Shown: one piece after another, positions 20,029 to 35,675 of the stretch | How positions within the stretch are numbered: position 1 is the first letter of the stretch | How the letters are laid out: every line of letters begins with the position of its first letter | Source of the DNA: Promethearchaeota archaeon | Lineage (GTDB): Archaea; Asgardarchaeota; Lokiarchaeia; Sigyniarchaeales; SOKP01 | DNA length: 64,000 bases | Direction: 5' to 3' | Assembly (NCBI GenBank): GCA_019894975.1 | Contig: JAGXNO010000001.1 | Span: forward strand, 165,677 to 229,676 | Made by a program: the position numbers and the translations under genes | Notes under the pieces: generated by a model | Databases searched by the model: none | What the model saw: the letters and a program-made list of their open reading frames with translations, nothing else | What the model was told of the DNA's origin: nothing

Positions 20029-21744
20029 TTAGTTGTTTCTTAATAGTTTCTTATCAACTTTCCCGATAACTGTTAAAGGGAGCTCCTCAGAGATCTCTAG
20101 GAGTTTTGGAACTTCATAGGCAGCACAATTTTCTTTCGCAAATGCTATTATATCTTCTTTCAAAGCTTCTTCATTTCCATCATACTCAAAGTTAGGATCT
20201 AGTTGAAAAAATGCCTTCACAATTTCAGAGCCAGGTCTGTCTGGATTTGGGATACCGATAGTAGCAACCGTTTCAATCGCAGGATGCTTGGTAAGAGTAT
20301 CTTCTAATTTAGCCGAAAACACTTTGAAACCACCAACTATAATCATGTCTTTGGTTCTATCAACGATTCTCAAATAACCTTCTTCATCCATGATTGCGAC
20401 ATCCCCTGTATGCATATAACCATCTTTATCAATTGCTTTTTTCGTTTCTTCTGGTTTATTATAATAGCCTTTCATTATTTGAGGGCCTTTAACACATATT
20501 TCCCCTGGTTCACCAAGAGGAACTTCTTTGTCTGTCTCTGGATCTACAAGTTTTAATTCGGTATTTAATAAAGGTAGTCCTATTGATCCCAATTTCCGTT
20601 GACCTTTATAAGGATTCATCGTAGTTAAGGGAGAAGTTTCAGTCATACCGTAAACTTCTAATAATTTGCCCTCTCCAACCATACTCTCCAACTGTTTTTG
20701 AGATTCAACCGGAAAGGGAGATGCAGCAGAAATACAAATTTCTAATTTGGAGTGATCTAATCTTTTGAATTTTCGTGTATTGATTAGTATTTGAAATAAT
20801 GAAGGTACGTTTACAAGTGCAGTTGGTTGATATTTTTTCATCTCATTACAAATCTGTTGGGTATCCCTTGGATTAGGTATTAGAACTTGACCCCAACCAA
20901 GCCAAAAACAGTTCTCACAGAAAAATGTGCCTGCTATGTGGAAAAAAGGAAATCCTGAAAGAGCTATTTTTGCTCCTTTTTCCCAACTGAGCCATTTTTG
21001 CACAATTAATATATCCGATACACAATTTCTGTGCGTTAACATAGCACCTTTAGGTGGACCTGTAGTTCCTCCAGTATATTGGATAAATGCTAGATCCTCA
21101 GGGGAAACCTTAACATTCGGTAAATCTTTGGAGTATTTTGCTAAAACTTCATCATGAAAATCGAGAACCGTTTTTCCTACTAACGGAGTTACCTCCCCTG
21201 ATGGGACTTCTGTAACTGCTTTGATTTTTTCTTGTTGTTCTTTCGGGAAAGAACCTACTACACTCGTCCAAACTACTAGCTTTAATTGTGGTAAATCTGA
21301 TTCAATTTTTTTTAGCCTGGCTTCAAAAATTGCATCTAATGTAACTAATGCTACATTTTTCTTTCCCGCTCCTAAATCTTTCAACTGATAATGCATTTGA
21401 ATATCAGACATGAGAGGACTTACACCAGATACCACACATCCTGCTTTTAAAGTTCCTACAAGGGATATTGGGTATTCTGGTATATTAGGTAAGTTGATTC
21501 CAACGACATCACCTTTCTTAAATCCATTTTCAACTAACATATTCGCAAACTGATTTGAGTATTCATCGATTTGAGAAAATGTGATTTCTAATCCTTGATA
21601 TGTAAATGCTATTTTATCAGGGAATTCGTCAAAAGTACTTCGGATTGCTTCGGTATAAGAGATCTCCCAAATGCTAGGGTCAAGATCCGTTAATCCTTTG
21701 TCCCAACTCTTACGCCAAAATCTATTTGCATATGGACTTTCCAT
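20029..21744 (-). CDS. long-chain acyl-CoA synthetase (AMP-forming)
   Basis: QYTGGTTGPPKG, YGMTETSP, TGD, VDRTKDMI, GKVDKK. Confidence 0.93.
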   Translation of the reverse strand: MESPYANRFWRKSWDKGLTDLDPSIWEISYTEAIRSTFDEFPDKIAFTYQGLEITFSQIDEYSNQFANMLVENGFKKGDVVGINLPNIPEYPISLVGTLKAGCVVSGVSPLMSDIQMHYQLKDLGAGKKNVALVTLDAIFEARLKKIESDLPQLKLVVWTSVVGSFPKEQQEKIKAVTEVPSGEVTPLVGKTVLDFHDEVLAKYSKDLPNVKVSPEDLAFIQYTGGTTGPPKGAMLTHRNCVSDILIVQKWLSWEKGAKIALSGFPFFHIAGTFFCENCFWLGWGQVLIPNPRDTQQICNEMKKYQPTALVNVPSLFQILINTRKFKRLDHSKLEICISAASPFPVESQKQLESMVGEGKLLEVYGMTETSPLTTMNPYKGQRKLGSIGLPLLNTELKLVDPETDKEVPLGEPGEICVKGPQIMKGYYNKPEETKKAIDKDGYMHTGDVAIMDEEGYLRIVDRTKDMIIVGGFKVFSAKLEDTLTKHPAIETVATIGIPNPDRPGSEIVKAFFQLDPNFEYDGNEEALKEDIIAFAKENCAAYEVPKLLEISEELPLTVIGKVDKKLLRNN

Positions 21745-21971
21745 TTTAGATTCCTTTTTAACTTCATTTGGATTGAATTTTTATATAAAAGTGTTAATAT
21801 TAATTATAGCTCTAATCAGTTAAAAAGTTTTAATTAATAGTTAGATGTAATAAAAAAAGAGAAAATGAAAAAAATGCTTTTATCGATATATCTCTATTAT
21901 TTAGTTTTATTCACGAGTATTAATTAAACTGTTGAGGAAAACATCTAAAATAAAGAAAAAGAAAAATGTAT

Positions 21972-23690
21972 TTAATTTTTACGTAATAACTTCTTATCTA
22001 CTTTTCCAACACTCGTAACTGGCATTTCATCGATAATTTCAAACGATTTTGGCACTTCATATGAAGCACAATTCTCTTTAGCAAATGCTATAATATCATC
22101 TTTTAATGCTTCCTCATTACCATCATATTTAAAATCAGGATCCAGTTGAATAAACGCTTTTACAGTTTCAGAGCCAGGTCTGTCGGGATTTGGAATTCCT
22201 ATAGTAGCAACCATTTCAATAGCAGGGTGCCCGGTTAAAGTATCTTCTAATTTTGCGGAGAAAACCTTATACCCTCCAACAATAATCATATCCTTGGTTC
22301 TGTCTACAATTTTTACGTATCCTTCATCATCCATGACGCCCATATCCCCTGTATGCATGAATCCATTAGAATCTACAGCTTTTTTAGTTTCTTCCGGCTT
22401 GTTATAGTATTCTTTCATAACCATCGGTCCTTTGATACAAATTTCTCCTGGTTCACCAATTGGTACCTCTTTCCCCGTTTCAGGATCAAGTAATTTGAAA
22501 TCTACATTTGGGAATGGAAGACCGACATGTCCAAGCTTCTTTTTGCCTTTCGAAGGATTTCCAATGGTTAAAGGTGAAGTTTCAGTCATACCATATAATT
22601 CTATTAACTTTCCTTCTCCAATAACACTTTCTAATATCTCTTGTGACTCTTTTGGGAAAGGTGCTGCTGCTGAAATTACAAAATCAATCATTTCCTTATC
22701 GATTTTTTTGAATTTTGGATTCTTTAGGAGCATTTGATATAATGTTGGAACATTCGCTAATATACTTGGTCGATATTTCAACATTTCTTTTATGATGTGA
22801 CCAGTATCTCGTGGATTTGGGATTAAGATTTGACTCCAGCCTAACATTATTACATTTGCACAAGTGAATAATCCCGCGATGTGAAAAAATGGAAATCCTG
22901 ATAAACCAAAACCCTTACCAAACTCCCAGCTAAGCCAATATTGGAATATAATTACATCAGATACAAAATTTCTGTGACTAAGCATGGCTCCTTTAGGCGG
23001 CCCTGTTGTCCCTCCAGTGTACTGGATAAAAGCAATATCGTCTGGTCCAATTTTTGTTTTTGGTAATTCTCCAGAAAATTTTCCTTTAATATGTTTGTGA
23101 TATTCAAGAACAGTTATTCCTTTGAGTGGAGTAACTTTTCCTTTGGGAATTTTCCCTACTAACTTTCCCATCGTTGCTAAGAACTTCGGCATGAACCCAC
23201 CTACACTACTAGTAACCACTAATTTTAGTGCGGGAATCTGAGTATAAATCTTCGTTATATGACCAGCAAACACGGCATCCAAACACAGAAGTGCTACTTT
23301 TTTTCCACCAGATCCTAAATCGTTCAATTGATATTGGATTTGAACTGCTGAAAGAAGTGGAGAAACTCCAGAAATTATTAATCCCGCCTTTAATCCTGCT
23401 AACACACCAATTACATACTCTGGTATGTTTACAAGACATATTGCCAAAACATCTCCCTTTTTAAAACCATTTTCAATTAACATATTAGAAAATTCATTTG
23501 AGAGCTTATCCAATTCAGCATATGATATTTCTTCTCCGTAGAAAAAGAAAGCTGCTTTTTCGGGAACTTCTTCAAATGTTCTTCTTATCGCTTGAGTAAA
23601 AGATGTTTCAAATTCCTTAGGATCTACATCGCTTATGCCCTTGTCGTAGCTTTTAGCTTGCCAGAAGCGATCTTCATATTTTTTTGACAT
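21972..23690 (-). CDS. long-chain acyl-CoA synthetase (tandem paralog)
   Basis: Same motif set; C-terminal domain closely similar to the neighbouring gene. Confidence 0.93.
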   Translation of the reverse strand: MSKKYEDRFWQAKSYDKGISDVDPKEFETSFTQAIRRTFEEVPEKAAFFFYGEEISYAELDKLSNEFSNMLIENGFKKGDVLAICLVNIPEYVIGVLAGLKAGLIISGVSPLLSAVQIQYQLNDLGSGGKKVALLCLDAVFAGHITKIYTQIPALKLVVTSSVGGFMPKFLATMGKLVGKIPKGKVTPLKGITVLEYHKHIKGKFSGELPKTKIGPDDIAFIQYTGGTTGPPKGAMLSHRNFVSDVIIFQYWLSWEFGKGFGLSGFPFFHIAGLFTCANVIMLGWSQILIPNPRDTGHIIKEMLKYRPSILANVPTLYQMLLKNPKFKKIDKEMIDFVISAAAPFPKESQEILESVIGEGKLIELYGMTETSPLTIGNPSKGKKKLGHVGLPFPNVDFKLLDPETGKEVPIGEPGEICIKGPMVMKEYYNKPEETKKAVDSNGFMHTGDMGVMDDEGYVKIVDRTKDMIIVGGYKVFSAKLEDTLTGHPAIEMVATIGIPNPDRPGSETVKAFIQLDPDFKYDGNEEALKDDIIAFAKENCASYEVPKSFEIIDEMPVTSVGKVDKKLLRKN

Positions 23691-24146: not shown

Positions 24147-24844
24147 AATTTTTTACCTTTTTTTTTAATTTACTTTTATTTTTAAATAAACATATTTAAT
24201 TATTCAATTTTGGAGCTTAAGAGCATCAGAGCTATTACTGTGTAGAAGAACAGTAAGATATTTGAGTAAAACAATTGTAGCAGTACTAAAATTTCTCAAA
24301 TTGTTTAGAACACATAAACAATCATACTTTTCGAATAAAATCTTCTAATCATAATTCATCAAATTTTAGTTAGTGATTTATGAAATCTAGTTGGATCGAC
24401 AATTCTAAAAAAGAAATTTAGCTATTTATGTCTTATAATTTTCCAAGATATTACGCCAATGACCGGTAACTTTGCTCAAAAAAGCAAAGATATATATTCG
24501 AAGCGATCTTATTGTCACATGAGCTAAACCAAAAAAGCAAAACTTTATATACATAAGTGTCTTAAAATATATTATAAATCCTAAAATCATTTATTTCATT
24601 TTTTTGTAAAAATTTTGAGAATAAACCAGAGTATTTTTGTCGGATATCTCTCATCTTTTTAACCTTTACCTCGTTTTATTTTTACTTCTACTCTCCTCTC
24701 CCTGTCTCCATATAACAATTATTCTTTTAAAGATAAAACTATTCCTAAGAAAAGGAATGATATTTCTGAATCTTGGATAAAACCCGTATATTTCAGAAAA
24801 TTGTCGGTGTATTCTTGTTTTATTTTGAAAAATCGTTATGATAT

Positions 24845-25594
24845 ATGATGAGTTACAGATCAGGATATGCGGTGTTCAAGAAGAACAGCCATTCTCCACC
24901 CATTTCAAGCGGAGATAAAACCCTTGATGAGTTGCTTTCTGGAGGATTCCATCAAGACTTAGTTTATTTGCTTTATGGAGATAAAAAATTAACCACTAAT
25001 ATTTTGTTAACAACTTCCGTCATTGTCCAAAAAGCATTTAACAACGGAGGGTTGGGTGAGGGTATCAGAGTGGCCTTTGTTGATGGGAATAATCGCTTTA
25101 ATCCCTACAACGTAAGCAAATATGCGGTTTCACAAAATTTATCCCCTCAGAAAGTCTTGGAAAATATCTTGATCTCACGAGCGTTTACATTCGACCAAAT
25201 CATTGAAATTCTGGAAAATAGGCTTTCAATGCTTGAAGATGTGAAAGTTGTGTTAATCTCTGGAATTACCACTATGTTCGAAGGATATGAAAAGCAGACT
25301 TTCGAAGAACTCCTAAGAGCAATAGATGGAATCAAACAAATGCTCTGGAAGACAAAACCCCTCATTATAATAACTGCCCCTTTGCATGAGCATTCTCTTT
25401 TCAGACCAAAAGGGGGAAAAATTCTTTCGCATTTTGGGAGTGTGTTGGTGATGATAAATGATGATGAAAGATACGATGAATATGTTCTCGTACAACACCC
25501 TTATCTTCCGGAGAACCGGTTACTAAAATGGAAACCTCGAACTTCTAAGAAGAAAGTCCCGTTAAAGAATGCGACGATAGATTGCTGGATTTAG
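24845..25594 (+). CDS. inactive RadA/RecA-like protein (PolB2-associated, ImuA-analogous)
   Basis: SSGDKTLDELLSGG, AFVDGNNRFNPY and LENILISRAFT are RadA-like; Walker A is degenerate (LYGDKKLTT); C-terminal NATIDCWI. Confidence 0.85.
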   Translation: MMSYRSGYAVFKKNSHSPPISSGDKTLDELLSGGFHQDLVYLLYGDKKLTTNILLTTSVIVQKAFNNGGLGEGIRVAFVDGNNRFNPYNVSKYAVSQNLSPQKVLENILISRAFTFDQIIEILENRLSMLEDVKVVLISGITTMFEGYEKQTFEELLRAIDGIKQMLWKTKPLIIITAPLHEHSLFRPKGGKILSHFGSVLVMINDDERYDEYVLVQHPYLPENRLLKWKPRTSKKKVPLKNATIDCWI

Positions 25595-25794
25595 AGATAT
25601 CACCAAAAAGCTTTCTCGAATTTATCTATAGTGTCCAGCAAACTATCTTTAATTCATAACCTTGAGCTTTTTAATGACTTACTTGTCAAAAATCACATTT
25701 GTTAAGAAAATGTGAGTTTGTATAAGCTTTTAAATAATATGCAATAATTTTCAGTATTATCTAAGAAAAATAATTTGTATGGATGTGAATAAAA

Positions 25795-26322
25795 TTGGAC
25801 ATGAAAACATTTAAAAAGACATTTATATTTGTCTGTGATGATTGTGGAGAATTTGCACCTGCAAAACTGGAATATTGCGAAAATTGCGGGGAAAAGACTT
25901 TAAGGAAGGCAACAAATGAGGATTATACGAGATATGAAATGGAAACAAAAAGAGACGATAAAGAACAGCGGATAGAATTTGAGAAAGCTGATGAAATTAG
26001 GATGGTTGCTGAGAGGGCTGAGAACGTAGTTGAGAAAGCTAAGAACGTAGTTGAGAAGGCTGAGAAAAAAGCTAAGAAAGCGTCTGAGAAGCCAGTCAAG
26101 ACAACTGAGAATGCTGAAAATATAGCTAAGAAGGCGTCTGAGAAGGCTGAGAAGGCAGCTGAAAAAGCTGAGAAGGCAATTAAGCAGGCCGCTGAAAAAG
26201 CTAAGAGGAAAGCAGAGAAAACTAAGCAGACCGCTGAGAACGCTAAGAAAGAGGCTGAGAACGCTAAGAAGAAAGTTGAGAGAACTAAACAGGAAGCTAA
26301 GACGAAAACAGAAAAGTCATAG
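25795..26322 (+). CDS. Zn-ribbon protein with Ala/Glu/Lys-rich repetitive tail
   Basis: CDDC...CENC, then about 100 aa of AEKA/AKKA repeats, with 21-nt repeats at DNA level. Confidence 0.75.
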   Translation: MDMKTFKKTFIFVCDDCGEFAPAKLEYCENCGEKTLRKATNEDYTRYEMETKRDDKEQRIEFEKADEIRMVAERAENVVEKAKNVVEKAEKKAKKASEKPVKTTENAENIAKKASEKAEKAAEKAEKAIKQAAEKAKRKAEKTKQTAENAKKEAENAKKKVERTKQEAKTKTEKS

Positions 26323-26539
26323 CTTTTTGATGTTAATCTATTTTTTTTTCGAGGTTTAGTGATAGTCTAGTTATTTTAAGAGATTTGTAGCATATGACTA
26401 ACTAAAAATCTTTGAGTGACGTATTTATTCGTTTTTTCTTCATAATGGACTTCAAAAATCAGAAAATTTGTTATGTACTTTCTTTTTAATCAACTGAAAC
26501 ACTTCTTTTCTGGGATTTAAAAGAACAGATGTGTGAAAA

Positions 26540-26812
26540 ATGGGAAGAACAGTTCCGTCATTTAGACCTGCATTGGAACATGAGATTGAAAGCTGGAAGA
26601 ATTTCAAAAGGGCTCTAAGGCCTGAAGAACAAAAAATATTTAACAAGCTGATGAATTATGCTCGAATCCATGCAGATGCAGGCAGTATGAGTGCACGCCC
26701 AATGCTCTCAGAAATATTATTCATCTCCTTTGCGGTTGAACAAGAAAAAAGGATCGAGATACTAGAAGAGAAGGTTGAAGAATTAGAAAATGTACTAAGA
26801 GGAAAAGAATAG
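26540..26812 (+). CDS. small PolB2-associated protein (arCOG07300-like)
   Basis: The MGRTVPSFR...W..FKRALR.EEQ.IF..L...AR.H pattern matches the small protein encoded upstream of archaeal polB2; 2 nt from the polB2 start. Confidence 0.85.
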   Translation: MGRTVPSFRPALEHEIESWKNFKRALRPEEQKIFNKLMNYARIHADAGSMSARPMLSEILFISFAVEQEKRIEILEEKVEELENVLRGKE

Positions 26813-26814
26813 GT

Positions 26815-29223
26815 TTGGTTTTTCAAGAAAAATTTGATGGTTGGCTTTTAGATGTATCCACCTATGGCAATGGGGTTATTCTTTGGGTAAAAACAATAAA
26901 AGAGCAAAAGATTGTAAAAATATTTCATGATTTTTGCCCTGAATTTTTTGCGGTTCCAAGACGACATGCGGGTAAGGATTTTAAGAGATTAATACAAATT
27001 CTCAAATCACATGATAATGTAAGTAAAGTGAGAATTTGTGAGAAATATGTAAAGCTAGAGGAGCATGAAAAAACCAAAATCTTTGGCGTTTCTGTAATAA
27101 AACCTTCAGTATTTAAAAAAACAATCAAAGAAATCGATGAAATTGAGCTTTTTACACTATATAACACAGATCTACCAATCGCTCAGATGTATTTCTACGT
27201 AAATGACTTATTTCCTATGTCTTTATGTGGGTTTAAGGTCAAACTTGAAAAGAAGAAGAAAGCTGATGGATACTTTATGCGTTTAGTCTCGTTAGAATTA
27301 AAAGACGATAACGAAAAGTTGTTTTACGATTTACCTCCTCTTAAAGCGGTCTGGTTGGATATTAAGATACAGCAACAAGGAATGAGATCATATTTTAACG
27401 ATCCTCTAGCATACGTCGAAGTGAGTATTGTTGAAAAAGATGAAAAAGCCAACATTCCACGGGCAGACGGACAGAGAAAGAAAAAAATTCTAATTGATGA
27501 AGCTGATGAGGCTGAAACTATCAAGAAGATCAGTAAAGTAATTGAAAGATTAAATCCCGATATTATCCTTACGCATGGAGGTGATGAGTTTGTGTTTCCA
27601 TACTTGGTTGCACGAGCATCAGTAAATCATGTCTCTAAGGATCTATATCTCTCTCGCACCAGGACACCCCTTAAAAACTGTATTTTTCAGCTTTCAGGAA
27701 ACTCTGATCATTATATGACCTATGGGATGATAATGCGCCGTTCCAAGACTCAAGTATATCTTACTGGTCGTTTTCATTTGGATACTACTACTTATGGCAG
27801 TTTGCACTTTAGTGAAGGTAATATACCTGGTGTTATTGAAGTCGCAAGAATCTCTCGAGTACCAATGCAAAGATTATGTAGGGTAACTATTGGGGGGGCA
27901 CTTCAATCAATACAGTACTATAATGCATATAAGCTAGATCATCTTATTCCTCCTTTTAAGAAGAGCCCAGAAGACTTTCGAAATGGTATGGAACTCATTG
28001 TTAATGATCGAGGAGGCCATATTTTTGAACCCTTAATCGGTGTTTTTGATCAAGTTGCGGAACTAGACTTTTCAAGCATGTATCCTTCTCTAATGGCTAA
28101 CTTCAACATTTCTTCAGAAACTATAAACTGTAAGTGCTGTAAGGATGACGGAACAGGAGTTAAAGTTCCTGGCACAAGTTTCCACATCTGTTCAAAGCGA
28201 GAAGGAATCATCTCCAAATCCATTAGCTTACCTCTCAAAAAACGCCTATATTACAAGGAATACAACAAGACACATGATGATCTACGGTACAAATTTACTG
28301 ATATTGCATTAAAATGGGTGCTTGTAGTGAGTTTTGGGTATCTGGGTTTTAAGAATGCTCGTTTTGGTAAAATTGAAGCACATCAGACGGTTTGTGCTTT
28401 TGCACGCGAATTCCTCATGCGATCTGCAGAAATAGCTCAAAATCATGGTTGTAAAGTTGTCCATGGAATTGTTGATTCAATGTGGCTTCAAGATACGAAA
28501 GGAAGAACTCCAAAAGAATTCGAAGAATTAACAAAGAAAATTGCAGATGAAATATCTGATAATATTGGTATTCCAATGAGTTGGGACGGATTATTTGATA
28601 CTATCGTCTTTTTACCCTCCCGAGCAGAACCTGATATCCCCGCACTTAGTCATTATTGGGGAATAAAAAATGATGGGGAGATCAAGGTAAGAGGTATTGA
28701 GGTCAGACGTAGAGATATACCAAAAATAGTAAAAGATGCTCAATATGCTTTTATTGATATTTTTCAAGGTGCAAAGACTGTTGAGGAGTTTACAAAAAGG
28801 ATTCCAGAAGCAAAGAAAAAACTTTATGAATATGCCGAAAGAGTCTATTCGGGTAATGTTACACGTGAAGAACTTACAATTCGACAAAAGATCTCTCGTC
28901 GACCTTCACAATACAAAGTTAACAGTTACCAGGCTGTAGCTGCTAAACAGCTTGAGCGCTCTGGAGTAATAGCATCAGCAGGAAAAAACGTTCGTTATAT
29001 TATTCTTAACGCTGAAGCAAACCCTGATTTTCCCGAAAAGAAGGTAATCCTATCCGATCTATTTGATGAAAAAAAGCATGAGTATGACAGAAAAAAATAT
29101 GTAGAATTGCTAAAAAGATCTTTTGAAAACATTCTTCCTTTCGAATTTCCTGAACTTGAGGAATTACTAAAATCTGATTATAACAAAAAATCAATTCAAA
29201 GAGATCTATCTTGTTTTATTTAG
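26815..29223 (+). CDS. polB2: family B DNA polymerase, PolB2 group
   Basis: Motif A ELDFSSMYPS, motif B KWVLVVSFGYLG, motif C HGIVDS (instead of YGDTDS), KVRGIEVRRRD, eroded exonuclease motifs, CKCC..HIC insert, C-terminal PIP-like QRDLSCFI. Confidence 0.92.
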   Translation: MVFQEKFDGWLLDVSTYGNGVILWVKTIKEQKIVKIFHDFCPEFFAVPRRHAGKDFKRLIQILKSHDNVSKVRICEKYVKLEEHEKTKIFGVSVIKPSVFKKTIKEIDEIELFTLYNTDLPIAQMYFYVNDLFPMSLCGFKVKLEKKKKADGYFMRLVSLELKDDNEKLFYDLPPLKAVWLDIKIQQQGMRSYFNDPLAYVEVSIVEKDEKANIPRADGQRKKKILIDEADEAETIKKISKVIERLNPDIILTHGGDEFVFPYLVARASVNHVSKDLYLSRTRTPLKNCIFQLSGNSDHYMTYGMIMRRSKTQVYLTGRFHLDTTTYGSLHFSEGNIPGVIEVARISRVPMQRLCRVTIGGALQSIQYYNAYKLDHLIPPFKKSPEDFRNGMELIVNDRGGHIFEPLIGVFDQVAELDFSSMYPSLMANFNISSETINCKCCKDDGTGVKVPGTSFHICSKREGIISKSISLPLKKRLYYKEYNKTHDDLRYKFTDIALKWVLVVSFGYLGFKNARFGKIEAHQTVCAFAREFLMRSAEIAQNHGCKVVHGIVDSMWLQDTKGRTPKEFEELTKKIADEISDNIGIPMSWDGLFDTIVFLPSRAEPDIPALSHYWGIKNDGEIKVRGIEVRRRDIPKIVKDAQYAFIDIFQGAKTVEEFTKRIPEAKKKLYEYAERVYSGNVTREELTIRQKISRRPSQYKVNSYQAVAAKQLERSGVIASAGKNVRYIILNAEANPDFPEKKVILSDLFDEKKHEYDRKKYVELLKRSFENILPFEFPELEELLKSDYNKKSIQRDLSCFI

Positions 29224-29331
29224 GAGATTAGGAGTCCCGACATAAAAATGTGATAACTTATTTCTAGCGACAAAAAGGTATAATAACCCCTTAATAGTTT
29301 CCTTTAAATATGGATCACTCAATACATATAT

Positions 29332-29617
29332 TGTTCATATCTGACAATGTGAAGCAATTCGCATCTCATATGAATGTCGAGAAGTAGTATTAGCAAGTCA
29401 GTGTGTTGCGCCAATTGAATTACTTTCGAGTAAGACAATCTGGTAAAATTGAACTTCCCTCACGGGAAGAAAAACTATATTTTCGGGTATAGAATTGAAT
29501 AATAGGTTTCCGGATCTGCTATTCAAATCGATTTAATACATTGAAAATCTGTAGGAAACTATGGATAGCTGATACCTCGTCGATGAAACCTTCGGGATTC
29601 ATTAACGGCTTCTCGTC
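29332..29617 (+). ncRNA. candidate large structured ncRNA of unknown family
   Basis: Nested long-range helices 29378-85/29608-15, 29387-94/29568-75 and 29398-408/29534-44. Hairpins are capped by GCAA, UUCG (three times), GAAA, UCCG and UCAC. Upstream TTTAAATA at 29303-29310; downstream pyrimidine/T-rich tract. Confidence 0.75.
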
Positions 29618-29696
29618 CCTTTATCTTTTAATCTTTCTTAAACTAAGAGTAATTTCTTTATCCTTGAATGTTCATAAAATAGAGAAAAAAAAAAAT

Positions 29697-30239
29697 TTAG
29701 GGAAGTGTGAGTACTTCAAAGAAATCAAATATAATTATTATTAAGCAGAGCAATTCGATTAAAATCCATATATTTCTTTTCAAACTTCTCAGCGCACCAA
29801 GAGGCTTACCGAAATAATTTAAAAGATTGTATATGAAGATAACGATCCAAGCAGTCACTAGAAACACAATAGGAAGAAGCAATGTAATGATTTCACGACC
29901 CTCATATTTCAGTAAATACTCATATCCAAGGATTGAAAACCCAACAATCACAAGAGTAAAACCAAAACCAAATGTATATTCTGCGAAGGTTACAAAACGT
30001 TTAACTCTCTCATCACTATTATCTCTTGAATTGGCTTCAAAATTTGCTTTTGAATTAGCAGATACGGAATTAACAAAGAAGATAAATGAAAGCATCAGCA
30101 AGAAGGTTATAGTAACAATACCATTATCCGGAGGTAATTGCCAAATTAAGGCAAGAATTGTTAAAACTGCGCCAATCATTACAGTACTTAATGTTATCCA
30201 GTCCTTTACGTTTAATTTCTGACTTTCTTCACTACTCAT
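29697..30239 (-). CDS. hypothetical membrane protein
   Basis: 180 aa, about 5 TM segments. Confidence 0.7.
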   Translation of the reverse strand: MSSEESQKLNVKDWITLSTVMIGAVLTILALIWQLPPDNGIVTITFLLMLSFIFFVNSVSANSKANFEANSRDNSDERVKRFVTFAEYTFGFGFTLVIVGFSILGYEYLLKYEGREIITLLLPIVFLVTAWIVIFIYNLLNYFGKPLGALRSLKRNIWILIELLCLIIIIFDFFEVLTLP

Positions 30240-32335: not shown

Positions 32336-32548
32336 TTAATTAATGAGTTTATTTATTATATAACTTGGATTTATCCATCTGCCAAGCTGTGCATTAGATG
32401 TAATCACGATTAAAATAATATCAAAGAAAAGAGTTGTTTTTCCTGAACCACTAACACCAGTAGCAGTAACTATTTTATTTTTCGGAAGTGATATATCAAT
32501 GTTCTTTAAATTATGAAGATGGGCATTATAAATTTCAATAGTATTCAT
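32336..32548 (-). pseudogene. uvrA: truncated uvrA(-like) N-terminal fragment
   Basis: [43 protein letters not shown] is the UvrA N-terminus with Walker A; similarity stops after about 45 aa and the ORF ends shortly afterwards. Confidence 0.85.
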
Positions 32549-32848
32549 TTTTATAATATTCTCAAGTTCCAATAAAAAAATAAAATGTCCATATAATTTT
32601 TGATTTTCTAAATTTTCTTTATTCTTCTTCTTTAAATTTCTATACGAGATTTTTGTCGGAGACACTCAACCCAAACAACAGTAGGTTTTTTGTCGGCATC
32701 ATCTTACAAAACTGTTAATTACGTTCCTTTAGTACGTAATTTTGACAAAATATTCAAAACTAAATATTTAGATTTTTATCATGGTATTGAATATTAGAAA
32801 ATTTATACACTGTATCCATTTATTTGATTAAACTAGTAAAATATAATT

Positions 32849-33077: not shown

Positions 33078-35675
33078 TTATTCGATTATATTATAACGGT
33101 TAAAGAGTCGTACTATAACTTTTATAAGCCAAAAATATTTCTTCCTCATTCTACTGACTAATGAATTTAAATTAAATGGCATTGAATCATCTGCTCGTGA
33201 ATGAATATTCTTTTCGAAATCGGGATAATTCAATCCACCAGTACCTTTAGGAGGTCTGCCAAAACTTCTAACATTTATCCATTCATCTTCATTTGTTTTT
33301 GAACCCACCCATGTTTTATCTGTTTTTATCTGAATTATCTCTCCTGAACTTAATGTTACTATCCCGTATACATTGATTGGCCCTATACCACCAATATAAT
33401 CAATGTTTTCAATCATCACTACATTTTCACCTTTTTTCAGAAATTCTGTGATGTTAAAAATCTGAATATTGTTTTCGATCCCAACATAATTTAGTGTTCG
33501 TCTTGAAATAACATGTCCCACATACTCTCCATTAATAAATATCTTAGAAAAACAACCAGCTATTACCTGTATAAAGGATTGCTCAACCTGTTCATCGATC
33601 TGGATGGTTTTTTTATAAAATGTAGTATGGATTTGATGGATATGATTTGAATCTAGGTAAATCAATTCACTTGGTATATTAGGATTCTCCCACTTTTTAT
33701 TAGCTCTAAGATCCTCTAATTTTTTATTATAGAATTTCAATAACCATAGATATTTTTGGTTAACCGATTTAAAACCATCTTCTTTTGCACAATTAAACCA
33801 AAGAAACTCATACTCATTTAAAAGATTCCGTAAATCTGTTATTAGGTTCTCAATTTCAATAATGCAATAATCCTTAAGAACGGTTCTTTCACGTTTAAGA
33901 TGAAAGTCAACAATATTTAGTGAGTTGATTCGTTTTTTACAATAAAATCTTATATGTTTTGCTACAAATGAAAGATTTCTGATATTGATATTATTTTTTA
34001 CGATTATTTTTCCCAATTCTTCACATTTTTCAATAATTGCATCCATATCAGAAATTAAACTCTTAAAACCCTTAATTTTAATATTTTTTTTATATTTCGA
34101 CGTGTTTTTGTTAAAAGGGTGAGCAAAAAAGTGATTATAATAGCTTGATGTGCGTGTATGCAACAGATTTTTTTCTTGTATCACTCGAAACTTACTAAAT
34201 ATCTCAATAAAACGATGATCAAGTATACCAAAGAAATGAATAAATAATCCTTTCCAGAAATTAGCTTTATTGATCTCTTTACTTGGGTCCCAACCCACCA
34301 TAGCAGAGAATATAAATCCATAAATTCTATTCTCTCGAATTTCTTTATTCCTATAATCACCCCAACTTGAGGTAATTTCCCCAATTATTTCTTTTTTATA
34401 CCCATACTTAATTAAGTTGGTTATATTTTGCTGACATTTATCAATGGATGGAAAAATTCGATTGAAATCCATTATTGAAGGACTTACCAATATTGGAAAA
34501 TTATAATCCTTAATTTTTTCTATTATTGAATGATTTTTCTTAATGCTATAGTTCCAATACATTATTATCATGTCTTTAGGAAGATTTTCAAGAACATCCT
34601 TATATTTGTAAAGAATGTCATGATAAATAATCACCTTCTTATACCCATGTTTTTTGGCTATTTCGTATACTTTTGTATAATGTTTAAAGTATGCATTTCC
34701 AAGTCCCCTTTCTTCTATATAGTGCTTTGAATTAACTTTCCCAACATCAAAACTTTCATCCGCACCAATATGAAAATATTCAGAAGAAAAAACTTCACTT
34801 AGTTCTCCAATCATTTTATCCAACATCACATAAATTTCTTCATTTGCAATGTTTAGACTATTTGAACCAGGGAATTCTCCATACTCCCAATAATCAGGAT
34901 TCTGTAGGATGTTATCCCAATGACCGATAGTTTGGAATATGGGAATTACTTCAACAAAATGATTATTAGCGAAATCAATTAAATCTTTTAAATTTTCCTT
35001 AGAATACGCACCTCGATTCTCCCCGATACTCGGATAATTTTTAAATCTAAACATATCCTGCATATAAACTAAATAATATTGGTTTATCTTGAAATGACTC
35101 AAATTTTTGATGAATTTCTTCAAATTTTCAATCGTAGGTGCTTGTCCTCTTGAAATATCATCAGAAACACCACGAATTTGTAAAGCGGGGAAATCTAGTA
35201 ATATCATATTATTTAAAGAGAGTTTATCTTTAGCGGAGTTTATTATTTGAATAAAGGTTTGTACACCATAAAAAATCCCTTGGATTGAATCCGCTTCGAT
35301 TATTAATTTAGAATCGTTAGAGATCAAGAGATATCCCTGAACCCTATATAGTTCCTTTACTGAAACTGTATTAAAAAGATTTTCTGGAAAAAAGCTTATG
35401 TTATCTTCTAAAAATGTTTTAATTTGTGGAGATTCCTCAATATGCTGAACTCGAATAACTTCTAAAGGGTTCTTAAGGCTAAATGATAATAATACATCTT
35501 GTATCTGTTTGATAATATATTGAAATTTTTCTGTTAAATCCGTGAAAATTTTCGAATCTTCACTAATTATTCCTTTATGTGAATTCTTTATTTTAAAATA
35601 TCGAGGTGGAGGGATTAAATAGATTTCTTCTTTTGTACCCTCCTCTTTATCTAAATTCTCTAGATATATGAACAT
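33078..35675 (-). CDS. glycoside hydrolase family 20 (beta-N-acetylhexosaminidase-like)
   Basis: [15 protein letters not shown], catalytic HIGADE, MYWNY; C-terminal beta-sandwich-like extension. Confidence 0.9.

Follow-up and report, generated by a model that had tools for sequence, protein, structure and literature searches.

A PolB2 mutasome locus in a Lokiarchaeial archaeon: two gene units with a probable common control, a zinc-ribbon passenger, and a neighboring structured RNA gene

Layout of the polB2 locus

We analyzed a stretch of 64,000 nucleotides (the window) from the 3.9-Mb genome of an uncultured Lokiarchaeial (Promethearchaeia) archaeon (GenBank assembly GCA_019894975.1, contig JAGXNO010000001.1, positions 165,677 to 229,676), which carries, around the DNA polymerase gene polB2, a copy of the published PolB2 mutasome, that is, the module iRadA-PPB2-PolB2. 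A preliminary description of this DNA had reported four open reading frames (ORFs) on the + strand between 24845 and 29223 and a strongly folding stretch 3' of polB2, all of which are present, and had proposed that together they may make up a five-part Asgard variant of a damage tolerance system. Our analysis indicates that the locus is, quite likely, the known three-gene mutasome in a split arrangement, with the Zn-ribbon gene lying between its parts as a passenger and the RNA as a separate neighbor gene. The features, in order of their position in the window, are as follows.

24790 to 24828, + strand: copy 1 of the shared promoter element, 5' of iRadA; TCAGAAAATTGTCGGTGTAT followed by the TATA-like TTTTATTTT, ca. 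25 nt before the ATG
24845 to 25594, + strand: iRadA, 249 aa; Pfam Rad51 (E value of 1e-15); dead ATPase site; tail NATIDCWI
25595 to 26539, no strand: hypervariable spacer between iRadA and PPB2, with the Zn-ribbon gene as its only gene in the window
25795 to 26322, + strand: Zn-ribbon protein, 175 aa; CxxC...CxxC ribbon plus a helical tail of Ala, Glu, and Lys (AEK)
26455 to 26493, + strand: copy 2 of the shared promoter element, 5' of PPB2-polB2; TCAGAAAATTTGTTATGTAC followed by TTTTTAAT
26540 to 26812, + strand: PPB2 (arCOG07300), 90-aa helical partner of PolB2; starts with MGRTVPSFRP, including Arg3 and Arg9
26815 to 29223, + strand: PolB2, 802 aa; PF00136 and PF03104; translesion (Dpo2) group; C-terminal PCNA-interacting protein (PIP) box QRDLSCFI
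29237 to 29310, + strand: promoter of the RNA gene; CGAC-A-rich boxes at 29237 to 29248 and 29267 to 29278, TATAATAACCCCTTAATAG block, and TATA box TTTAAATA at 29303 to 29310
29330 to 29624 (approximate), + strand: structured RNA of ca. 295 nt, of the short class of a family of 260 to 360 nt; followed by a T-rich tract

The neighborhood of polB2 was surveyed in two sets of loci. The first comprised 16 loci of the same genus and 9 loci from other families of the same order, and the second comprised 72 loci from public Promethearchaeota metagenome-assembled genomes, whose PolB2 proteins were 59 to 92% identical to that of the window. A PolB2 tree was computed to place the surveyed loci.

The core genes are those of the PolB2 mutasome

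The linkage of PolB2 with arCOG07300 and an inactivated RadA was described by Makarova et al. (2014, PMC4104785), and the two partners were renamed PPB2 and iRadA by Timinskas et al. (2025, PMC11791011). The marks of the three proteins are a PolB2 whose motif C DxD has its first Asp lost or replaced, a helical PPB2 of ca. 90 aa with an N-terminal MGRT arm and the residues Arg3 and Arg9, and a RadA/Rad51 fold with a dead ATPase site in iRadA (PMC11791011). In the alignment to Pyrococcus PolB, motif C of the window PolB2 reads HGIVDS against YIDTDG, with the first Asp of DxD lost, and motif A (LDFSSMYPS) is retained. The N-terminus of PPB2, MGRTVPSFRPAL, has the MGRT arm, and GRTVPSFRP is conserved in nearly all surveyed loci of the family; the 90-aa ORF gave no domain-family match. 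As for iRadA, its Rad51/RadA match is limited to the first 145 residues (Pfam), and the NCBIfam scores for RadA, Dmc1, and RadB are all far below the cutoff. Alignment to the RadA/Rad51 protein of Pyrococcus furiosus shows both halves of the ATPase site altered: GSGKT of Walker A has become KLTT with a gap, and the Asp of Walker B has become Ser (IVDSLT to LISGIT). The preliminary description had named these genes as the PolB2, arCOG07300, and inactive RadA module, and the Walker loss, the MGRT arm, and IVD in place of DTD bear this assignment out.

The arrangement of the genes is also that of the mutasome. PPB2 lies immediately 5' of polB2 in every locus of the genus with the upstream flank covered, iRadA is found upstream on the same strand, and the order iRadA-PPB2-PolB2 is kept with one inserted gene in the window and 0 to 4 kb of inserted DNA in the relatives. 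Arrangements "interspersed with other genes" have already been listed for the mutasome (PMC11791011). In the literature, it is predicted to form a PolB2-iRadA-(PPB2)3 complex for damage-tolerant DNA synthesis on PCNA, and homology would predict the same complex, with translesion or mutagenic activity, for the window locus. The cassette is an ordinary member of a published system, present here in close archaeal relatives of eukaryotes.

Some order-level relatives depart from this layout. At loci L037, L038, and L040, an iRadA gene of 283 to 286 aa overlaps the start of an 823-aa PolB2, and a separate PPB2 gene was not found by tblastn; the protein may have diverged too far, be part of a fusion, or be encoded elsewhere. 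At loci L042 to L044, polB2 has neither partner within 4 kb.

PCNA-box-like C-termini are present on both PolB2 (QRDLSCFI, at 29197 to 29220) and iRadA (NATIDCWI, at 25568 to 25591). Both are conserved family-wide (ca. 50 to 70 family loci for the two tails), with the consensus Q[KR]DLSCF[I] in PolB2 and KN[TAM]T[LI]D[CY]W[FIV] in iRadA, the latter in ca. 50 loci. Such motifs in both proteins are rare (PMC11791011). Family-wide clamp-docking tails on iRadA and PolB2 bear on how the complex sits on PCNA.

A variable spacer and a shared promoter element

The distance between iRadA and PPB2 ranges in the relatives from 43 to ca. 4,000 nt, and it is 0.5 to 4 kb in most of the family. Contiguous iRadA and PPB2 genes were found in the order-level relatives L039, L041, and L045 and, with the gap of 43 nt, in L150 and L151; they are nearly contiguous in L129 and L155, and the complete genome G005 has a bare iRadA-PPB2-PolB2 module. 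Elsewhere the spacer is filled by differing mixes of genes unrelated to one another, at least seven in all and found on both strands (mostly opposite to the module), namely, genes for a longin-like protein, a membrane protein, the Zn-ribbon protein, a DUF3795 protein, an amidohydrolase, a glycoside hydrolase family 20 (GH20) hydrolase, and a QueG-like protein. A copy of the GH20 hydrolase gene also occurs within the window, at 33078 to 35675. The most widespread occupant, seen in two genera (L131, L136, L141, and L091), is a Cys-rich DUF3795 gene, which is encoded opposite to PPB2-polB2 and diverges from it; this gene is missing from the window.

In three assemblies of the genus (G009:C76, G011:C83, and G019:C138), iRadA lies near the start of a contig and PPB2 and polB2 were found nowhere in the assembly, and a fourth (G010) has iRadA with no match to PPB2 or polB2. 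These four genomes had been candidates for loss of polB2 and were dropped as evidence, given that the absence may reflect an assembly break in the variable spacer.

Despite the spacer, the DNA preceding the two halves of the module is alike. Copies 1 and 2 of the element align over ca. 40 nt with the common form TCAGAAAAYT-N5-TGTAT-N5-7-TTTTAATTT. The ca. 50 nt 5' of the iRadA start codon is almost invariant within the genus (6 aligned genomes), and since only some of the genomes keep the frame upstream of iRadA open, with stops in the rest, this conservation reflects a DNA or RNA signal and not a coding sequence. Similarly, ca. 85 nt 5' of PPB2 is conserved in all loci of the genus, regardless of which gene precedes it.

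The specificity of the element was evaluated with profile searches. A joint nhmmer profile run against the whole genome gave two significant matches, which were the two sites themselves (E values of 6e-7 and 3e-6), with the next match at 0.49. When the profile was built from the PPB2 sites of other genomes only, the iRadA site was the best non-self match genome-wide, with an E value of 0.47, which is weak alone. Exact 20-mer matches in 54 genomes included only these two promoters among the matches listed. A third recurrent "site" from a one-mismatch pattern search was discarded, as it falls inside the coding sequence of ribosomal protein S19e. At the promoters of the Zn-ribbon gene and of the RNA, the profile search gave no match to the shared element above noise.

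Given that iRadA and PPB2-PolB2 have this element in common, we infer that the two units are probably still switched together. On this reading, an operon that was ancestrally contiguous has been broken open between iRadA and PPB2, where a spacer gains and loses unrelated genes, and its two halves keep one shared ca. 40-nt promoter element. What appears to be new here, judging from the sequences, is that in this genus iRadA and PPB2-PolB2 form separate units with a common promoter element. A split mutasome could thus retain common control through an element that is specific to these promoters in the genome, and the element offers a concrete DNA site on which to seek an Asgard DNA damage regulator.

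The Zn-ribbon gene is a sporadic passenger of the spacer

The Zn-ribbon gene had been proposed as an additional component of the module. The Pfam matches of its product are to Zn-ribbon families and all below the threshold, and its tail is encoded by tandem units of 21 and 54 nt. A search of 5.8 billion proteins yielded six homologues of near-equal length to the Zn-ribbon/AEK protein, all unnamed, and neither the protein atlas nor Pfam, NCBIfam, or the homologue search suggested a function. The ribbon belongs to a multicopy family with one to six matches in each of 54 genomes of the genus, mostly free-standing ORFs of ca. 52 aa and some tandem fusions; the window genome has a second ribbon copy on contig C131.

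The distribution of the gene across polB2 loci is patchy. It was found between iRadA and PPB2 in 12 of the 51 scorable family loci, all from one genus. Seven loci could be scored in the window's clade of eight members; three of them, the window included, have the gene, so that it is missing from 4 of 6 scorable relatives. The closest locus (L141, with 92% PolB2 identity) is without it and has the opposite-strand DUF3795 gene in its spacer, and the gene is absent from every locus with a PolB2 identity of 78% or less and from all loci outside the genus. This distribution requires at least nine gains or losses on the PolB2 tree. Most genomes that have the gene also have opposite-strand genes between it and PPB2.

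The Zn-ribbon/AEK gene is a lineage-specific, sporadic passenger of the spacer, as judged from its scattered presence, its absence in the closest relative, the dispersal of its paralogues, and the lack of the shared promoter element. As a component of the module it had to be given up: most close relatives have polB2 loci without it, and paralogues are scattered in every genome of the genus. We also considered whether part of one genus has lately recruited its product as a lineage-specific accessory or regulator of the module, e.g., as a nucleic acid-binding coiled-coil adaptor. The long-tailed form is indeed always located between iRadA and PPB2 in the loci surveyed, and the gene has a conserved upstream region of its own, but descent alone would keep it in the same spacer. 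In addition to the nine or more changes on the tree, its position within the spacer varies, with other-strand genes before PPB2 in most genomes, its tail evolves fast through repeat slippage, and none of the searches mentioned above recognized a functional domain. An accessory role is therefore very unlikely.

A structured RNA gene follows polB2

The structured RNA reported 3' of polB2 in the preliminary description was borne out by strand-specific folding and strong covariation. On the + strand, the 477 nt after polB2 folded with −117 kcal/mol (z score of −4.97, with none of 100 shuffles as good), and the − strand gave a z score of −0.33. In the alignment of the short class, to which the window RNA belongs, 19 of 94 pairs had compensatory changes. 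In that of the long class (17 sequences), 97.4% of the cells were paired versus 33 to 44% with the partners slid, and 20 pairs had double changes versus 2 to 10 when slid; the observed values were reached in none of 500 shuffles. The RNA starts ca. 22 nt past the TATA box and has a 5' hairpin (UGUUCA.../...UGAAC), a long-range closing helix (CGAGAAG/CUUCUCG), and a T-rich end. Its promoter is ordered as box CCGACATAAAAA, ca. 20 nt, box CGACAAAAA, and then TATAATAACCCCTTAATAG and the TATA box TTTAAATA; it is nearly invariant in 24 aligned genomes and travels with the RNA to other genomic contexts.

Neither the window RNA region nor 10 homologous loci had an Rfam match at E values of up to 1, and no tRNA match was found after polB2. 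The RNaseP_arch and Archaea_SRP matches are at C86 and C175, both apart from this RNA, which is single copy in the genome. By BLAST, it was not found in the other families of the order that keep the PolB2 module and is confined to one family. The RNA is a real, structured, and separate gene with its own promoter.

We then evaluated how closely it is tied to polB2. Of the 67 scorable loci, 20 have the RNA on the polB2 strand, 110 to 180 nt past the stop codon. They belong to at least three clades and comprise all eight of the window's clade, 12 of 17 of the sister clade (five with short-class and seven with long-class copies), and L139. An earlier view, based on the first 16 loci of the genus, that only the two closest relatives had the RNA after polB2 was overturned by the 72-locus survey, which added the sister clade. 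The genus also includes 17 or more other genomes in which the membrane protein gene begins within ca. 20 nt after polB2; there the RNA lies elsewhere, together with its promoter. These other contexts number at least three: after a gene for a 125-aa protein of unknown function, before a pair coding for Lrp/AsnC ligand-binding-domain and gelsolin-repeat proteins, and between DUF1326 and nitronate monooxygenase-like genes.

Two features of the RNA as a genomic object were observed as well. RNA and promoter together behave as a discrete unit of ca. 470 nt (29224 to 29696 in the window) that is cleanly missing between polB2 and the membrane protein gene in many genomes, e.g., L096, and no terminal repeats were noticed around it. 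At three or more other sites, the unit has the same promoter boxes without any change. Tandem duplicates are present at several loci (L091, L124, L131, L135, L155, and G059).

Two sediment metatranscriptome runs, both from one study, contained contigs 90 to 97% identical to the window over iRadA, parts of polB2, and the RNA (29379 to 29588). None covered the Zn-ribbon gene; the contigs come from relatives, and they indicate presence only and cannot rank expression. One of them runs from iRadA straight into the PPB2-type element, which fits relatives without the Zn-ribbon gene.

Because its own promoter moves along with it, it occurs in at least four contexts with unrelated neighbors, and it is found as tandem duplicates, we read the RNA as an independent gene, whose adjacency to polB2 is a frequent, probably old, and dispensable synteny. 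The comparison of relatives counts only in part against its proposed place in the module: the RNA still follows polB2 throughout the window's clade and at most loci of the sister clade, but it stands beside unrelated genes in at least 17 other genomes of the genus.

An alternative is that, of the two extra parts, only the RNA has a functional link to PolB2, e.g., serving damage-tolerant synthesis as a scaffold, guide, or regulator, and that selection has kept an ancestral adjacency where it survives. The same-strand position was found for short- and long-class RNAs and extends to clades with PolB2 proteins 71 to 77% identical to that of the window, and both polB2 and the RNA are represented among the RNA library contigs (again, as presence only). 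However, the RNA promoter is separate and strongly conserved, the ca. 470-nt unit is cleanly missing from many polB2 loci and sits beside unrelated genes, and BLAST finds no RNA in other families of the order with the PolB2 module. For these reasons we regard such a tie as unlikely. The stronger version makes the RNA an ancestral partner of the PolB2 module in this Lokiarchaeial family, acting as a subunit or regulator of the translesion polymerase complex, with the adjacency in three or more clades owed to function and not to inherited gene order; it seems to us distinctly improbable.

Boxes of the RNA promoter and other sequence signals

The box CGACAAAAA is rare (42 per genome), and same-strand pairs spaced 15 to 60 nt apart occur at two places in the genome, the RNA promoter and a site upstream of a UvrA remnant. 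This remnant, a UvrA-like N-terminal fragment of 70 aa at 32339 to 32548 (− strand), ends just past the Walker A GSGKT; ahead of it lie two CCGACAAAAA boxes with a spacing of 37 nt (32648 to 32695, − strand), 3.4 kb from the RNA promoter. No box was found within 300 nt of 25 intact UvrA-like paralogues in relatives, and a box copy at 24634 is not conserved in relatives. The motif TTTTTGTCGG, which the preliminary description had put forward as a damage "operator," was consequently set aside as a connection between the RNA and DNA repair.

For Sulfolobus, induction of dpo2 by 4-nitroquinoline 1-oxide (NQO) has been described, mediated by Orc1-2, which binds at ANTTTC (Sun et al., 2018, PMC6061795). 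Of 6 aligned genomes, only 3 read ACTTTC within a conserved block ca. 130 to 150 nt 5' of iRadA, where the window reads ACTTCT. The shared element differs from ANTTTC, and a DNA damage-responsive element (DDRE) of the Sulfolobus type was neither confirmed nor excluded.

Flanking genes

The 3' neighbor of the folding stretch is a convergent gene for a DUF443-like membrane protein (29697 to 30239, − strand). Just upstream of the locus, at 20029 to 23690 (− strand), are two tandem paralogous acyl-CoA synthetase-like genes (571 and 572 aa), and copies of this cluster also flank polB2 loci in several relatives.

Discussion

The case for a five-part system, in which the Zn-ribbon protein and the RNA would both be working components of an expanded Asgard PolB2 damage tolerance machine, starts from the locus itself, whose five features share a strand and fit within 4.8 kb, and from the retention of the RNA after polB2 throughout the 8-member clade. 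The comparison of gene neighborhoods across relatives largely refutes it. The Zn-ribbon gene, found in fewer than half of the scorable loci of that same clade and nowhere outside the genus, is too sporadic, the RNA is located away from polB2 in at least 17 genomes of the genus, and neither of their promoters has the element common to iRadA and PPB2. The five-part proposal finds no support in this comparison, and we consider it extremely improbable.

Several observations weigh against our own interpretation. On the side of the RNA, adjacency to polB2 was found in 20 of the 67 loci, spread over at least three clades, some of which have gained genes between the RNA and the gene after it and none between polB2 and the RNA; this leaves a functional tie some probability. 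On the side of the promoters, the match of the cross-profile at the iRadA site (E value of 0.47) is weak by itself, and co-regulation of the split halves is deduced from sequence. Taking both sides together, a known three-gene mutasome in two parts, with a passenger gene in its spacer and an RNA gene next to it, is still the reading that we hold to be quite likely.

Since the "extra components" are probably not components, modeling and bench work on a five-part complex can be spared. The RNA, on the other hand, merits study in its own right as a member of a so far undescribed family of large Asgard archaeal structured RNAs.

Comparison with known systems

The RNA resembles OLE, GOLLD, ROOL, raiA, and archaeal RNase P RNA in that it is a multihelix RNA (260 to 360 nt) rich in GNRA- and UUCG-type loops, with strong covariation, a single copy, and its own promoter. 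It differs from them in having no Rfam match, with the RNase P and SRP RNAs of the genome located elsewhere, and, by BLAST, it is limited to one Promethearchaeia family.

The module can also be compared with error-prone polymerase systems of bacteria. ImuA-ImuB-DnaE2 and Pol V (UmuD'2C-RecA) are alike in logic, in that an error-prone polymerase is tethered to the sliding clamp and works alongside a RecA-fold protein and a small accessory one, although this is an analogy only: the polymerases there are of the unrelated families C and Y, whereas that of the locus is of family B, and no ImuB-like or UmuD-like protein was found among the four proteins of the locus by their Pfam and NCBIfam domains. 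With the Dpo2/Orc1-2 DDRE regulon of Sulfolobus, the window shares a PolB2 module that may have a dedicated promoter signal. The element here is TCAGAAAAYT-N5-TGTAT plus a TATA box, unlike the ANTTTC hexamer, and no orc1/cdc6 gene was seen among the ORFs around the locus.

The closest counterpart is the published PolB2 mutasome (PMC4104785, PMC11791011), with which the window shares the same three proteins and their defining marks, their order and strand, and clamp-binding tails. It differs from the published module in three respects: the operon of the window is in two units split by a variable spacer, PIP-like tails are found in this family on both iRadA and PolB2, and one promoter element is common to both units.

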